NCBI GenBank assembly: GCA_030618505.1
Contig: JAUXDF010000003.1
Location: forward strand, 1 to 38,321
DNA: 38,321 nt
Source of the DNA: Spongiibacteraceae bacterium
GTDB taxonomy: Bacteria; Pseudomonadota; Gammaproteobacteria; Pseudomonadales; PIVM01
Reading direction: 5' to 3'
In this document: one piece after another, positions 11,397 through 36,911 of the stretch
How the letters are laid out: every line of letters begins with the position of its first letter
Numbering within the stretch: the stretch's first letter is position 1
The notes under the pieces: model-generated
Database searches by the model: none
What the model was told of the DNA's origin: nothing
The model's input: only the letters and a program-made list of their open reading frames with translations
Made by a program: the position numbers and the translations under genes

Positions 11397-12260
11397 TTAG
11401 GAAATCGCCGAAGCACCACTTACTATTTCTGAAAGTTCCTGGGTAATCGATGCCTGGCGCGCTTTGTTATAAATAAGCTCCAGACCATCAATCAGGTCTC
11501 CGGCATTATCGGTGGCATTTTTCATTGCCAGCATGCGTGCTGCCTGCTCGCAAGCGCCGTTTTCAACCACGGCCTGATATACCTGGGATTCGATATAACG
11601 GGCAAATAAACCATCCAACAAATCGCGAGCATCGGGCTCGTAGATATAATCCCAATGATGTTTCATGTCTTCGCTTTGTTCAGCTTCTAAAGGCAGTAGC
11701 TGCGATACACCTGGATTCTGTGTCATGGTGTTAATGAACTCATTACCCACCAAGAACAGCTTATCGATTTTTCCTTCACTAAAACCGTCAAGCATGACCT
11801 TCACGCCACCGATCAGATCGGCAACATCCGGAGTTTCACCCAGATCCCTTATTGCGGCTATAACATTACCACCGTAACTCTTAAAAAATGCCGCCGCTTT
11901 AGCGCCCACTAAACAAAGATCGATCTCTACATTACTGTCGTGCCATTGTTTCATTGCTTTAATGGAGGCCTTAAACAAGTTAATGTTTAAACCTCCACAT
12001 AAACCACGATCAGACGAAACGATAATAAAGCCAACTCGCTTTACATCACGCTCCTGCATAAACTTGTGCTTGTATTCCGGTGTAGCATTAGCAACATGGC
12101 CAATAACCTGGCGTATACGCTGGGAATAAGGCTTACCCAATTGCATGCGTTCCTGTGCCTTGCGCATTTTACTCGCAGCAACCATCTCCATTGCGCTCGT
12201 AATTTTCTGCGTACTCTTAATACTGCCGATCTGAGTACGTATTTCTTTTCCGCCAGCCAT
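11397..12260 (-). CDS. atpG: ATP synthase F1 gamma subunit
   Basis: [30 protein letters not shown]. Confidence 0.99.
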
Positions 12261-30245: not shown

Positions 30246-32672
<2,427 letters not shown>

Positions 32673-32913
32673 GTGCTTTTGTTGTGGGTTCTCACGAGAA
32701 ATGAAAAATTCTCACCTAAAATGAATCAAATATTTTAGGTGAGTTATAATAAAATCAGTAACTTACAAATAATTACCATATAATAATTATTGTTAATTGG
32801 TCGGGTAAATCACTTTTTCCGACCAATTCTATACAGTTGAAAGCACAGATAAAGCCTCTCTAAAACCATTTTATAGTTGTGTTGGCTCCCACATAATGGC
32901 CAAATCCGACCTT

Positions 32914-32937
32914 TTCTCACATAAAATGCACTTTTCT
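32914..32937 (+). repeat. 24-bp inverted repeat, left copy (partner 35811-35834)
   Basis: TTCTCACATAAAATGCACTTTTCT versus the reverse complement of 35811-35834, TTCTCACATAAATTGCACTTTTCT (23/24). Confidence 0.9.
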
Positions 32938-33103
32938 GCCAGACACCTCAGCCTAAGCTTGTTGATTGGCTCCAGCAATTAACCGCCCTGATTCTTTTAA
33001 CATTCAACGGCTTACAAAGCCAATTGGCGCGAAAAACCACCTGCCATTTAACATTTTAGGGACACAGAAAACTCAGATCAGTTAGTAAACTCGGCCTAAA
33101 TAA

Positions 33104-33146
33104 CTTTAATATTGAAGTATATTTATTTTATGCTACAATATTAAAG
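33104..33146 (+). promoter_or_regulatory. TA operon promoter with overlapping inverted-repeat operator
   Basis: TTGAAG(33112)-16 bp-TACAAT(33134) with extended TGn. Arms CTTTAATATTG (33104-33114) and CAATATTAAAG (33136-33146). RBS AAGGAGG at 33153. Confidence 0.75.
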
Positions 33147-33165
33147 CAGATTAAGGAGGCCTATC

Positions 33166-33567
33166 ATGAGCCAATACGCAGATTTCACGAAAGAAAAAAG
33201 AAAAGAAGCTGCCGGCCCTTTAATTAAGGCTGTACTTCAAATATTTGAACGCTGGAGACTAAATAATACCCAGCAGCAATCCTTATTGGGCCTGCATAAT
33301 GAGGGTACATTCTATAACTGGAAGAAGAAGCCTGAATCAGCAACGCTCACTAATGATCTGCTAGAACGAACCAGCTATATATTGGGAATTTGGAGATCAC
33401 TTCAATTACTTATTCCTGAGGAAAGGGTCTCTGATTCTTGGATCACCTCGCCTAATAGTAGTATTGCGTTTAATGGGCAGTCTCCACTAGAAAGAATGCT
33501 TGGCGGCCAGATCGTAGATCTAGCCCATGTGCGTCAATATTTAGATTCGGAAAGAGGCGGTTGGTAA
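33166..33567 (+). CDS. Xre/MbcA/ParS-family antitoxin (HTH plus C-terminal toxin-binding domain)
   Basis: W.L...QQ..LLG....TFYNWK HTH, DLLER.SYILGI..SL..L, W...PN....F.GQSPL..M, VRQYLD..RGG; lies upstream of a RES gene. Confidence 0.93.
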   Translation: MSQYADFTKEKRKEAAGPLIKAVLQIFERWRLNNTQQQSLLGLHNEGTFYNWKKKPESATLTNDLLERTSYILGIWRSLQLLIPEERVSDSWITSPNSSIAFNGQSPLERMLGGQIVDLAHVRQYLDSERGGW

Positions 33568-34256
33568 TGGACGTTAATGGTCTGGATGTCACTAAAGTAG
33601 AAGAGACTACCTACCGTCTAATTCCAAGCAGGTTCCCACCTATTGACCTCTACGGGCGAGTCTCTACCCCAGAAGAGTTTGAATTTCTCCATGAAATAGA
33701 ATCCCTAACTAACGAAAGACTAAGAGATCAGGTTGGCGATATTAATCTCGTTGCCAAAGAAGACCGCATAGCAGGCCCAGGAACCAGCTATATCATGGCT
33801 GCATTTACGCATGCAAAAGTAGATGGTGACGGTGGCCGATTCAATAAGGGCTATGGTGTCTTTTACTGTGCAAAGGAGATAGAAACTGCACTAGAAGAGA
33901 CGAAGTATCACCGAGCAAAATTTTTTAACGACTTCAATAGTTGCCCCACAACCATTGATATGCGCTCGTTAGTATCTGACTTATCCCATGAACTTCACAC
34001 TATTCTTGATAAACAGACAGAGCTTCCTGATATTTATGATCCTGATGATTATTCTACTGGCCAAGCTCTTGGTCAAAAGCTAAAAGAAGCAGGCTCATGG
34101 GGCATTGAATACTCGAGTGTTCGCAAAGATGATGGAACATGTTATGGCGTTTTAAGACCACCAGCCCTATCAAACTGCCGACAATCAAAACACTACGAGT
34201 ATCATTTTGATGGAAATGAAATTTCACATGTAGTGGAGAAGATACCAGTCGAATGA
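33567..34256 (+). CDS. RES-domain toxin (NAD+ phosphorylase family)
   Basis: YRLIPSRFPP (R), IMAAFTH, RF...YGVFYCA, TALEET.YH (E), GIEYSSVR (S). ATG 33567 overlaps the antitoxin stop (TAATG). Confidence 0.93.
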   Translation: MDVNGLDVTKVEETTYRLIPSRFPPIDLYGRVSTPEEFEFLHEIESLTNERLRDQVGDINLVAKEDRIAGPGTSYIMAAFTHAKVDGDGGRFNKGYGVFYCAKEIETALEETKYHRAKFFNDFNSCPTTIDMRSLVSDLSHELHTILDKQTELPDIYDPDDYSTGQALGQKLKEAGSWGIEYSSVRKDDGTCYGVLRPPALSNCRQSKHYEYHFDGNEISHVVEKIPVE

Positions 34257-34834
34257 ACGATATATTATTGCCATTCACCAATCTTCCCGACGCATACATA
34301 GTCCTTGATACGGAGACCACAGGCCTACTTGATGAAATAGGCCCCCCTGGCATCGTTACACTTGGATTAACTCCAGTAGATAACCATAAGATTTTAAATT
34401 CTATCGAATTTAAATTAAAACCCTACCGCAGTATCAACGATGAAGCACAACGCGTGCACGGCATATCAAACACAGAAGCTAGTACATTCGATGACATATC
34501 AATTAAATGGCCTGAGATTAAGGGTTATTTAAACAATAACTATGTCGTTATCCACAATGCTAGCTTTGACTGGCCTATAATCGAATTTCACATCCAAAAA
34601 TTCGATTTAGACCCTTTATCTAACGTTTCGATATTCTGTTCACAAAAATCTGCTATTCCCTTCGCTAAAGAAAACAACATTCCAATGAGTTCTCGTGGGC
34701 CCTCTTTGGATGCCCTCACTGAATACCTTAATACTTCGTCTTTACGGGTGAATGGAATACATGGCGCGGCAATAGATACTAAACAAACAGCACTTGTCGT
34801 AGAGGCCTTAAGGAAGCTAGGAGAAAATAAGTAG
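34253..34834 (+). CDS. DEDDh (DnaQ-like) 3'-5' exonuclease
   Basis: ExoI VLDTETTG, VHGI, ExoII HNASFD, ExoIII HGAAID; ATGA overlap with the RES stop. Confidence 0.9.
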   Translation: MNDILLPFTNLPDAYIVLDTETTGLLDEIGPPGIVTLGLTPVDNHKILNSIEFKLKPYRSINDEAQRVHGISNTEASTFDDISIKWPEIKGYLNNNYVVIHNASFDWPIIEFHIQKFDLDPLSNVSIFCSQKSAIPFAKENNIPMSSRGPSLDALTEYLNTSSLRVNGIHGAAIDTKQTALVVEALRKLGENK

Positions 34835-35152
34835 ATGTTAAAGGAACTCGAGTTTAGAGCGAGCTAAACCCTCAGGCCAATATTTTCTGGCCTGATTGAG
34901 CTAGTTCCTCTGCTTGTTTTATCGTATTACGCGGCGTTTCTTTGCTCATCCGCATATTCCCTTTTTTTCGTCCTGTCAGGCGGCTCGAATTTTTTGCATT
35001 TACTGTTCCACCAAGACCTAGCGGCAACATGCCTAAAAATGTAAACAAGCCCCTTGCGAATTTGCGCTGCCGTTTGCGGATTGTTCTTTCGCCACGGCGA
35101 ATGACAACACAATTGCGCCTCCCTCTCACTATCCAAACAACAGTCATTTGAT

Positions 35153-35179
35153 GTGAGAGCCAACATTGTTGGTTCTCAC
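35153..35179. repeat. Palindromic junction GTGAGAGCCA-ACATTGT-TGGTTCTCAC
   Basis: 10-bp inverted arms (9/10 match) around a 7-bp spacer; the same arm motif occurs at both islet ends. Confidence 0.85.
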
Positions 35180-35407
35180 GGAAAATAAATTTTCTATTAT
35201 TTTCAAGGAGTTGAGAGTTTCTCTCGCCACATTTATTCACTCTAAATCACATTTTGGTTGGGTAACTGCACGGTTACTCAACCAAGACCCTTGATAAAGA
35301 AGCTAGATATTTACAAAAGGGTTTAGTTTATCTAATAACTGATGAGTCTATCGAAATGTGGGCGGCCTACAGGGTGATATAGACAGGGGGAAAGATCAGG
35401 GCGCGTG

Positions 35408-35659
35408 CTATTTGGTTTTTGTGATTTTGCGGAGGGCCGTATCAATATGGTTATTGTTAGCATAGGCATAAATGTTTACGTCTCCGTCAATACTGATGCC
35501 GTCACCTATTTTGATTCGTGATTTTTCCAGCATATCCCACCGGTAGCGTTTAGCGCTCAAGCCAAGAGAAGTGTAATTATCCAGGGTGAGGCCTGTTCGG
35601 GCAATAGTGCGTTTTACCGCACTCTCCAAAACGGCATAGTCTTCTGGTGTGATTTTCAT
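35408..35659 (-). CDS. Small hypothetical protein, possibly phage-like
   Basis: 83-aa ORF, ATG with AGGGAG RBS, protein-like composition (KRYRWD...YAYANNNHIDTALRKI). The phage resemblance is recollection only. Confidence 0.75.
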   Translation of the reverse strand: MKITPEDYAVLESAVKRTIARTGLTLDNYTSLGLSAKRYRWDMLEKSRIKIGDGISIDGDVNIYAYANNNHIDTALRKITKTK

Positions 35660-35810
35660 TCTGACGCTCCCTGGTTGCTGTTTATGAAAGATCGTAAATC
35701 GTTATTGGAAGAACTGACAACAAGGAATGGCGTTGACACGAAGCCGCTTATGTACCCCGAAAAGAGAAATATATCAACGGTTTGAAGCGCGATAACTTAT
35801 TCAATTATAA

Positions 35811-35840
35811 AGAAAAGTGCAATTTATGTGAGAACCAGCA
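35811..35840 (-). repeat. Right-end repeat of the islet
   Basis: Minus strand TGCTGGTTCTCACATAAATTGCACTTTTCT; a consensus IHF site TATCAACGGTTTG lies at 35772-35784. Confidence 0.85.
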
Positions 35841-36179
35841 TTGTATAGTTCTAGTGCCAAGTAAAATCCGTCAATATAAAGTATGTAAGTGCTTACAAAC
35901 TTTGTATTGTCTGCCCCCCCTCTCAATGTCATTAACTTAAGGACATTCTTAGGCCCGTAGCCGTGATCAGTGTGCCCCGTGTAACGCTTTGGGTATGAGC
36001 TTGCGAAATCAAGGGGGTTACTGGATTAATTCCCGGATTTCATTGACGATCTGCTTTAGACATTGACCCAATAAATGAAAAGGTTACCGAGTTGATCAGT
36101 TTACAGTTGAGAGTAGCCAAGCAGGAATATGAGAATATTTCTTTATCCCATGAAAAAAATGCTTTTCCCGCAGTCACAG

Positions 36180-36911
36180 TTACACGTCTTGGTTCATTTC
36201 GCTTACTTTATTTTCTATCCACTCTTGTGCCATGGCAGTAATTTCGCGACTGGTTTTGCCTTCTACTGAAATAGGCTTACTAATTTCAATTTGAATAACA
36301 CCGGGAAATTTCAGGAACTTTCTTGCCGGCCAGTAGCGACCAGCGTTGTGTGCAATAAACACCACGGGAGCCTCGGCTTTTATGGCCAGGTTGGCGCCAC
36401 CACGTGCATAGTTAGTTTTGGTGCCATGCTCGGTGCGAGTTCCCTCGGGGAAAACCAGCACAGTGTTGCCCTCCTCCAGGCGTTGTTTTCCAAGCGCCAT
36501 CATTTGTCTTAAGGCCTCTCGAGGATTACCACGGTCGATAGCGATAGGCTTCATTAAACGCAAACCCCATCCAAAACCCGGAATATCCAATAACTCTTTT
36601 TTTAATATAGTACTTAGAGGATCACATAAATTAAGTAAAAAATAGGTTTCCCACTGACTCTGGTGGTTACTTAATATGACATAGGCTTGATCAGGAAGGT
36701 TTTCTCGTCCTGTTAATTGATGTTTCACACCACAGGACCACTGTAGCCAGCGAATAACACCACGGTTCCATAAAAGAATATAAGGACGACGATGAGGGTA
36801 GGAAAAAAACCTCATAATAGTTAATGCTGTTATCCCAAACCAGGTAGTGAGAGCTGTATAGCCAATATAAAAAGCAACTGTCCTCAAGCCCAGAAAAAAA
36901 GTATTAAGCAT
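36180..36911 (-). CDS. plsC: 1-acyl-sn-glycerol-3-phosphate acyltransferase
   Basis: SNHQSQWE (HX4D/E), IDR, FPEGTR; adjacent to gmhB. Confidence 0.93.
   Translation of the reverse strand: MLNTFFLGLRTVAFYIGYTALTTWFGITALTIMRFFSYPHRRPYILLWNRGVIRWLQWSCGVKHQLTGRENLPDQAYVILSNHQSQWETYFLLNLCDPLSTILKKELLDIPGFGWGLRLMKPIAIDRGNPREALRQMMALGKQRLEEGNTVLVFPEGTRTEHGTKTNYARGGANLAIKAEAPVVFIAHNAGRYWPARKFLKFPGVIQIEISKPISVEGKTSREITAMAQEWIENKVSEMNQDV

Follow-up and report, generated by a model that had tools for sequence, protein, structure and literature searches.

Cargo units without recombinase genes behind gyrB of a Spongiibacteraceae bacterium: a probable array of Tn7-like transposons moved in trans

Organization of the array downstream of gyrB

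The stretch of DNA analyzed here, referred to as the window, comprises 38,321 nucleotides of contig JAUXDF010000003.1 from the assembly of a Spongiibacteraceae bacterium (GCA_030618505.1; 461 contigs, 84% complete). Directly behind gyrB, in the interval leading to plsC, the window carries cargo genes in units that are delimited by related ends and stacked at a single site (Table 1). A first reading of the letters alone (the original prediction) had described non-autonomous units with related, inward-facing ends, stacked 10 bp after the gyrB stop codon and presumably moved in trans, at an accretion site for toxin and defence cargo beside the genes of the replication origin, and this outline holds. 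Neither the list of open reading frames (ORFs) nor Pfam revealed an integrase or transposase between 32670 and 35897, as the prediction had stated, and the interval contains no multi-integrase remnant of the GInt, RIT or gamma-mobile-trio islands that it had named as needing exclusion. Profile scans of the assembly for rve, Phage_integrase, TniQ and TniB likewise returned nothing on the window's contig, and Rfam gave no match over 32400-36300 at E<=0.1. The 3' end of gyrB, which is the presumed targeting landmark, is alignable to the gyrB 3' ends of 37 of 40 relatives.

Table 1. Features of the gyrB-proximal array and its cargo in the window.
Feature	Position	Strand	Parts and remarks	Basis
gyrB, 806 aa	30252..32672	+	Stop codon 32670-32672; dnaN and recF upstream	ORF list
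10-bp spacer GTGCTTTTGT, gyrB stop to end A	32673..32682		Last 4 bp (32679-32682) TTGT, left copy of target duplication	Sequence reading
End A, proximal R-type module, starting TGTGGGTTCTCACGAGAAAT	32683..32864	+	Terminal TGTGGG; adjacent 20-bp sites 32689-32706 and 32709-32726; inverted copy of second site 32735-32748; hairpin 32796-32827	Sequence reading, repeat analysis
End B, distal L-type (CACAT), inverted	32880..32937	+	Terminus TGTTGGCTCCCACATAATGG; inner site TTTTCTCACATAAAATGCACTTTTCT	
Xre-like/MbcA-ParS-type antitoxin, 133 aa	33166..33567	+		Pfam PF20432 (1e-11), PF09722 (3e-9)
RES-domain toxin, 231 aa	33561..34256	+	Overlaps antitoxin gene	Pfam PF08808 (8.5e-30)
DEDDh/DnaQ-like 3'-5' exonuclease, 193 aa	34253..34834	+	Start overlaps toxin stop	Pfam RNase_T (1.2e-12); PADLOC DEDDh (9e-21)
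End C, distal type, closes unit 1; TGTTGGCTCTCACATCAAAT	35118..35165	-	Terminal part 35146-35165; inverted site 35118-35133	
TTGT directly after end C	35166..35169		Overlaps first 3 bases of end D	Sequence reading
End D, degenerate proximal module; TGTTGGTTCTCACGGAAAAT	35167..35300	+	Terminal TGTTGG; one site; hairpin 35253-35286	Aligns with the other nine modules
83-aa protein, cargo of unit 2	35408..35659	-		No Pfam, NCBIfam or PADLOC match
End E, distal type, closes the array; TGCTGGTTCTCACATAAATT	35811..35840	-		
TTGT, right copy of target duplication	35841..35844			Sequence reading

The four ends first described (A, C, D and E) were found by direct reading exactly as written, and the bases adjacent to their arms (TTGTTGT, ACATTGT and GCATTGT) were confirmed. 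A fifth, end B, had escaped the original prediction; it pairs with end C at 14 of 15 bases, and its inner site is 96% complementary to end E (23 of 24 nt) according to the repeat analysis, which also placed inner copies of TTCTCACnnAAAATG at 32709 and 32914, both on the forward strand. The pattern TGTTGGYTCTCAC, with up to two mismatches allowed, has five matches in the 38-kb window against 1.13 expected, and one of 100 shuffles reached five; we consider the end motif family to lie far beyond chance because it is conserved at the same place in other organisms. Where the two units meet, the C/D junction forms a near-perfect palindrome (GTGAGAGCCAACA-T-TGTTGGTTCTCAC).

Elsewhere in the source assembly, the motif TGYKGGYTCYCAC was matched seven times in all, compared with four times for a control, with five of the matches in the window and one each on contigs C71 and C212. 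The C212 match was judged to be due to chance. On C71 there is a true sixth end, homologous to end B and followed by a second copy of the gene for the 83-aa protein (approximately 90% DNA identity over 315 bp; protein 93% identical), after which the contig runs into a repeat where the assembly breaks. Ends B, C and E, together with the C71 end, carry the distal kind of site.

A conserved end module behind gyrB in other hosts

Relatives of end A were recovered from both metagenomes and genomes. Ten loci were returned by a metagenome scan with the proximal-type pattern, two of which (L081 and L090) are real relatives; the other eight lack a second site and were attributed to chance. Genome searches used the first 182 bp of the window after the start of end A as query, to which L081 is 79% identical (over 232 bp). 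A single real match (G107) was found among 150 genomes of the order, and in 400 genomes of the order five matched at E<=5e-4, with G107 and G349 being real (end A and G349 share 83% identity over 144 nt), while the other three (G173, G269 and G362) are weak candidate matches to internal AT-rich parts of the module. G406 was detected in a search of the family of G349, in which two of 20 genomes carry the module, and in one genus it is present in two of 16 genomes. In a sample of genomes from the class, 399 were scored and none matched, and a plasmid collection yielded no match to either the proximal or the distal module. The distal-type pattern TGYKGGYTCYCACATMA gave four single matches in 400 genomes of the order versus five for the control, none with a second site, and five motif matches in viral contigs also lacked one; both sets were judged to be chance.

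The ten known copies of the proximal module, which is approximately 180 bp long, are all alignable. Within the first site, TGT..GGTT.TCACG..AAAT is invariant, and it is followed by a second site 20 bp on, a AATAAAATCA box and a hairpin. TGTGGG and two abutting 20-bp repeats are shared by nine of the ten copies, and the hairpin retains 13 pairs, six of them with compensatory changes. The distal ends of L081, G349 and G406 are homologous to one another, with two TTTTCTCACnnnAAATG sites spaced by 29 bp and, after a further gap of about 70 bp, the terminus ...CCCACA. End modules are 130-180 bp long, contain several direct-repeat sites arranged unlike at the two ends of a unit, and terminate invariably in TGT...ACA. 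The four motifs that the original prediction took for recombinase sites are instead parts of such asymmetric, multi-site ends.

Six of the ten copies lie directly behind gyrB, three are second modules further along an array (end D of the window, G107 and G349) and one is located elsewhere, on contig C279 of G406. From the gyrB stop codon to the module there are 10 bp in the window, in L081 (where the end also starts TGTGGGTTCTCACGAGAAAT...), in G107 and in G349; in L090 the distance is 11 bp, and in G406 it is 13 bp. The orientation is the same at all six gyrB loci with the family, and at three of these the module heads an array.

A conserved structure behind a core gene could also be immobile, namely an ancient element that regulates or terminates gyrB, with arrays arising by duplication and homologous exchange of a variable region situated between core genes. 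The conserved hairpin, followed by a run of T in G107, would suit such an element, as would the absence of any detected helper, and the identity of the module between hosts (76%-83%) is not clearly above that of the gyrB 3' ends (approximately 73%-78%). We nevertheless regard this explanation as very improbable, given the sporadic occurrence of the module (two real cases behind the five matches in 400 genomes of the order, none in 399 of the class and two of 16 in one genus), its presence away from gyrB on C279, the exact target duplications that flank units and a clean empty site in G037, a member of the genus just mentioned.

Target duplications, an empty site and a second genomic context

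The clearest record of insertion is found in G349, where the TAA of gyrB is followed by AAACGG, TCGT, unit 1 (8.6 kb), TCGT, TT, unit 2 (1.16 kb, encoding vapBC), GTTT and TCACAC. The two units are flanked by exact 4-bp direct repeats that differ from each other (TCGT and GTTT). Both repeats are of target origin, with an overlap of 2 bp, and the empty site can be reconstructed as AAACGGTCGTTTTCACAC, with unit 2 entering at GTTT (+12) and unit 1 entering later at TCGT (+10). This pattern is the transposition scar of two staggered-cut insertions, with no shared crossover core. In the window, TTGT stands to the left of end A and to the right of both end C and end E; the simplest history would be two insertions at the same TTGT, after which one TTG was lost from the TTGTTGTTG run at the C/D junction, and the TTGT after end C would then be the middle copy of the target duplication. 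The first unit of G107 is flanked by AGGT and GGGT.

The metagenomic locus L081 can be compared with an empty site. G037 is 98% identical to it up to base 50, the left junction, and 92% identical over 1496 bp from base 11630, and thus G037 has a true empty site from which the 11.6-kb unit is absent. The L081 unit is flanked by TCGT and GTGT, which are the tetranucleotides at +10 and +12 when the site is reconstructed as TTTTCC TCGTGT GATGG. This fits a two-unit array that collapsed by recombination between modules, although it may be no more than a plain 2-bp duplication. A gyrB-plsC spacer without an insertion was not encountered in close relatives of the source organism: gyrB downstream regions at 29 relatives' loci (five of which could not be parsed) included no alignable empty site and one motif match, 954 bp away, that was judged to be chance, while the single genome of the same family has no end motif and an unrelated gyrB-plsC spacer.

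Hosts differ in sequence at the point of insertion but keep its distance from the gyrB stop codon; this is the behavior of a target selector bound to the coding end, as TnsD is at glmS. One unit is also found in a second genomic context. The vapBC unit of G349 recurs on contig C279 of G406 with 87% identity over 1190 bp, approximately 110 bp behind the 3' end of a gene of the HI0933/YhiN family.

As a separate observation on C279, the stretch directly after the stop codon of the YhiN-family gene (L147, 330-435) starts with TGTGTCAGG and contains three TTTAGACAA-type repeats. It lies between that gene and the vapBC unit and could be what remains of a Tn7-like end of the TGT type that homed to yhiN.

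Site-specific recombination as an alternative

The original prediction attributed the stacking to a tyrosine recombinase with a 7-bp overlap region. More generally, the units might be circularizing cassettes moved by a site-specific tyrosine or serine recombinase in trans, with a core beside the CTCAC arms and the C/D junction as a complete hybrid site. The palindromic character of that junction agrees with this explanation, as do the lack of a transposase in the units, the six tyrosine-recombinase matches elsewhere in the source genome (including an adjacent pair on contig C349) and the possibility of assigning a GT dinucleotide to each of the junctions compared, GT being all that is duplicated in L081 relative to G037. 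However, with a GT core the distance from GT to the TGT or ACA terminus would not be the same in all units (0 or 2 bp on either side), so that there is no fixed site geometry. The junction bases (TTGT, TCGT, GTTT, GGGT and GT) and their variable spacing show no crossover core conserved at a fixed distance from the arms, and the supposed chromosomal arms are unlike between hosts while the distance from the gyrB stop is kept. Invariant TGT...ACA termini and long, asymmetric, multi-site ends also speak against such recombination, as do the differing 4-bp repeats of G349. No end motif was encountered near any recombinase gene of the source genome, and Phage_integrase was detected neither on the window's contig nor in the units of L081, G349 and G107. 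For these reasons, we consider it unlikely that a site-specific recombinase built the array, and the tyrosine recombinase of the original prediction is not upheld. Sites of the dif/Xer type were set aside after a by-eye comparison with the dif consensus, which gave no convincing likeness and was not accompanied by a search.

The pair on C349 (approximately 7.6-12.6 kb) encodes tyrosine recombinases of 314 and 315 aa in neighboring genes behind a 935-aa ORF, with no TTCTCAC-type end nearby. It may belong to an element with several recombinases that has no connection with the gyrB array.

Comparison with known mobile elements

The array shares several traits with cassette systems. Like integron arrays, it consists of recombinase-less units lying head-to-tail at one site near the origin, with the enzyme encoded elsewhere, and composite islands of the staphylococcal cassette chromosome (SCC) type likewise accumulate units without recombinase genes at one chromosomal site near the origin. 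Unlike both, the array has no adjacent integrase, attC-type sites or shared crossover core, and its target-derived duplications differ between units.

Tn7-like elements offer a closer comparison. As described in PMC9308760, their ends combine a short TGT... terminus with transposase-binding repeats of about 22 bp, which overlap or are packed in the right end but stand apart in the left end, and the text and Table 1 of PMC11406308 give yhiN, glmS, comM, parE and tRNA genes as attachment sites. Among these elements, Tn7 targets glmS, Tn6230 yhiN, Tn7017 parE and the I-B2 and I-D CRISPR-associated transposons tRNA genes; gyrB is the paralog of parE. No report of gyrB as a Tn7-like attachment site was found in the literature, although supplementary tables of surveys may list it. 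The units behind gyrB resemble Tn7-like elements in their TGT...ACA termini, in direct repeats of approximately 20-22 bp that are packed on the gene-proximal side and spaced distally, in the single orientation and the short, fixed spacing of their insertions behind the stop codon of a gene that is essential and conserved (at six of six gyrB loci), in their defence and toxin-antitoxin (TA) cargo, and in the piling up of several elements at one site. They differ in a duplication of 4 bp, where it is exact, instead of 5 bp, and in that no tnsB, tnsC or tniQ was found within units or tied to the ends or, in two of the host genomes, anywhere. Because of these two differences, we do not file the array as a proven member of the Tn7 group.

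The enzyme could also be a DDE transposase outside the Tn7-like group, either of the IS21 type (IstA/IstB), of another branch of the Mu superfamily or of an undescribed kind, with a way of its own to find gyrB. Elements of the IS21 family make 4-bp duplications and have TGT ends, several subterminal repeats and abutted-end junctions, in agreement with the ends seen here, whereas the 5-bp rule of Tn7-like elements is broken and no tns genes are linked to the ends. Conversely, the only IS21 of the source genome (contig C22; IstA of 523 aa and IstB) has unrelated ends (TTGATCA....TTCTGG repeats), no istA-type gene was located near any TTCTCAC end, and the rve genes of G349 belong to ordinary single-gene insertion sequences without TTCTCAC sites. 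Homing to a fixed gene end in a single orientation is not known for IS21 elements, and oriented insertion at a fixed distance behind a conserved gene is known only for Tn7-like selectors (TnsD/TniQ). An origin from such a non-Tn7 system is rather unlikely.

A proposed model of targeted transposition in trans

Taken together, the interval from 32683 to 35840 is probably an array in which two or more cargo transposons, all non-autonomous and belonging to a single family, were assembled by Tn7-like attachment-site transposition in trans. We favor DDE transposition with a target selector because of the differing 4-bp repeats, the conserved distance to gyrB, the TGT...ACA termini and the asymmetric multi-site ends. 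A unit would comprise the gyrB-proximal module (TGTGGG, two abutting 20-bp repeats and the hairpin) and an unlike, spaced distal end terminating in ...ACA. Insertion would be carried out by a TnsB/Mu-type DDE transposase supplied in trans, for which the TTCTCACnnnAAAT repeats are the predicted binding sites, and a selector recognizing the conserved 3' end of gyrB would direct it to a point approximately 10-12 bp past the stop codon, with the orientation always the same and the staggered cut spanning 4 bp; both proteins are putative. Repeated insertion would push older units outwards and so generate a cargo array beside the origin genes, and the hairpin of the module may serve to terminate read-through from gyrB. 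The tandem arrays of the window, G107 and G349 argue that target immunity, if present, is leaky or bypassed between different units.

Several observations weigh against this model. Stacking in tandem at offsets of 0-2 bp is not what Tn7 would be expected to do, since target immunity should oppose it. All three exact duplications (TCGT, GTTT and TTGT) are of 4 bp and not 5 bp, a fifth base being obtained only if the invariant first T of the element is counted, and the comparison of L081 with its empty site leaves a duplication of GT only. In the window itself, end D lies only 1 bp from end C, which is why the additional loss of 3 bp has to be assumed; the flanks of D-E, taken as a separate unit, do not match and show no duplication, and the model explains neither this nor end B, an inverted distal-type end 16 bp past the proximal module. 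No tnsB, tnsC or tniQ was found inside any unit or linked to the ends, a TniB/TnsC-type ATPase was not detected in G349 (99% complete), G406 or the source genome (generic AAA+ matches at 24-26 bits being all that was returned), and TniQ was not found in the source genome. The one set of tns genes in a gyrB-plsC interval, that of G107, shows no evident TTCTCAC-type ends at its boundaries, and its TnsD-like protein has relatives that are not specific to gyrB.

The G107 genes in question are tnsA, tnsB, tnsC (TniB), tniQ and a gene for a 609-aa TniQ-helix-turn-helix protein, located about 15 kb into the interval and pointing away from gyrB, as Tn7 does behind glmS; the presence of this complete set at that place speaks for the model. 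The DNA before tnsA contains other repeats, for which no inverted partner was found, and at the far edge of the island there is one weak TTCTCAC-like site, compared with 2.3 matches expected by chance in that stretch, without a matching duplication. Relatives of the 609-aa protein occur in two of 400 other genomes: in G036 within a gyrB-downstream island, inverted, and in G244 with no gyrB nearby. The tns module of G107 is a lead and not a link.

The same island of G107 contains, on the reverse strand of L099 and approximately 2.64-2.79 kb after the gyrB stop, five tandem 22-bp TTTAGTTCAGTGAAGTATGGAT-like repeats ending in ...CCCCCCCACA. These look like a multi-site end that belongs to another TnsB-type element.

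As a more tentative proposal, which we consider possible but not the likelier outcome, the units could represent cassettes of a targeted-transposition system that has not been described before. Its helper, so far not seen beside the ends, would recognize the gyrB 3' end and make staggered cuts of 4 bp instead of 5 bp, being either a divergent TnsB type or a hybrid with IS21-like chemistry. Such a system would service a pool of transposase-less cargo traded among marine gammaproteobacteria, giving a defence array beside the replication origin that is integron-like but built by transposition.

Cargo of the units and significance

The units carry diverse cargo, a large part of which resembles defence or TA genes. 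In unit 1 of the window, the antitoxin, toxin and exonuclease genes form a single operon of three overlapping genes (33166-34834). The exonuclease scored under the cut-offs of the NCBIfam DnaQ-type models; in PADLOC, it matches a CRISPR-associated DEDDh model and the candidate system PDC-S48. The RES-Xre-DEDDh operon may be a three-part TA or defence module. L081 carries two genes for proteins resembling single-stranded DNA-binding proteins, a gene for a 1662-aa nSTAND1/Sel1 NTPase, a gene resembling those for extracytoplasmic function sigma factors, a DUF4258 protein and unknowns. G349 encodes HD, nucleotidyltransferase, histidine phosphatase, DUF6527 and DUF6791 proteins, an IrrE-like peptidase and VapBC, and G107 encodes Fic and a type I restriction-modification (R-M) system, among others. 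No recombinase was found among the cargo of any unit.

The 83-aa protein of unit 2 has 113 homologs at 40%-96% identity, spread over many marine gammaproteobacteria. It was tested as a possible marker or part of the machinery of the element. At 23 other loci, no end motif was found beside its gene, three distant motif matches being judged chance, and in 20 loci there was no conserved neighbor of a transposase kind or otherwise, except for an RND/MMPL-like exporter in four. The role of element marker or machinery was rejected on these grounds, and the gene is therefore regarded as cargo.

If the model of targeted transposition is correct, gyrB would be a further homing site for targeted transposons besides glmS, yhiN, comM, parE and tRNA genes, and one that can be filled wholly with cargo units without a transposase. 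The conserved 180-bp end module provides a simple handle for finding such arrays, which, considering their content (RES-Xre with exonuclease, VapBC, a STAND NTPase, HD and nucleotidyltransferase proteins, DUF6527/DUF6791 and type I R-M), are a source of candidate defence systems. Should the 4-bp duplication hold, the chemistry known from Tn7-type machines, which serve as programmable insertion tools, would be broadened by the missing helper.

Additional observations at and around the locus

In the genus with the empty site, a well-conserved non-coding stretch (L081, 11631-11760; L011, 1877-2000) has gyrB upstream and a 4HBT thioesterase gene downstream. It could be a leader or a regulatory RNA.

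Contigs from sequencing runs were consulted for the window but were not used as evidence. Run X1 contains identical pieces, and runs X2, X3 and X5 contain variants of approximately 94% identity that include the gyrB-A junction and the TA and exonuclease cargo. In one X2 contig, the A end is joined at 32679 after 86 unlike bases, representing either a second context or a more divergent gyrB. No piece listed for X2, X3 and X5 spans 35733-35903, and no joint that skips a unit was reported. Over the non-coding stretch before end C (34847-35141), the summed contig depth in X3 and X5 was 45-170, compared with 4-8 for the neighboring cargo, which suggests that the end-C region exists in more copies or organisms than unit 1, contig depth being a poor measure.

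Many of the sequencing-run contigs begin or end at 35923-36000, between the array and plsC. This segment contains a repeat of approximately 44-77 bp that occurs with 82%-98% identity on about 30 further contigs of the assembly and is a genome-wide element resembling repetitive extragenic palindromes or miniature inverted-repeat transposable elements. Closer to the array, the end of gyrB, ATGTCTAAGTGCTT (32666-32679), recurs as ATGT-AAGTGCTT at 35883-35894, 43 bp beyond end E, which may be chance or a relic of an older, displaced gyrB tail.

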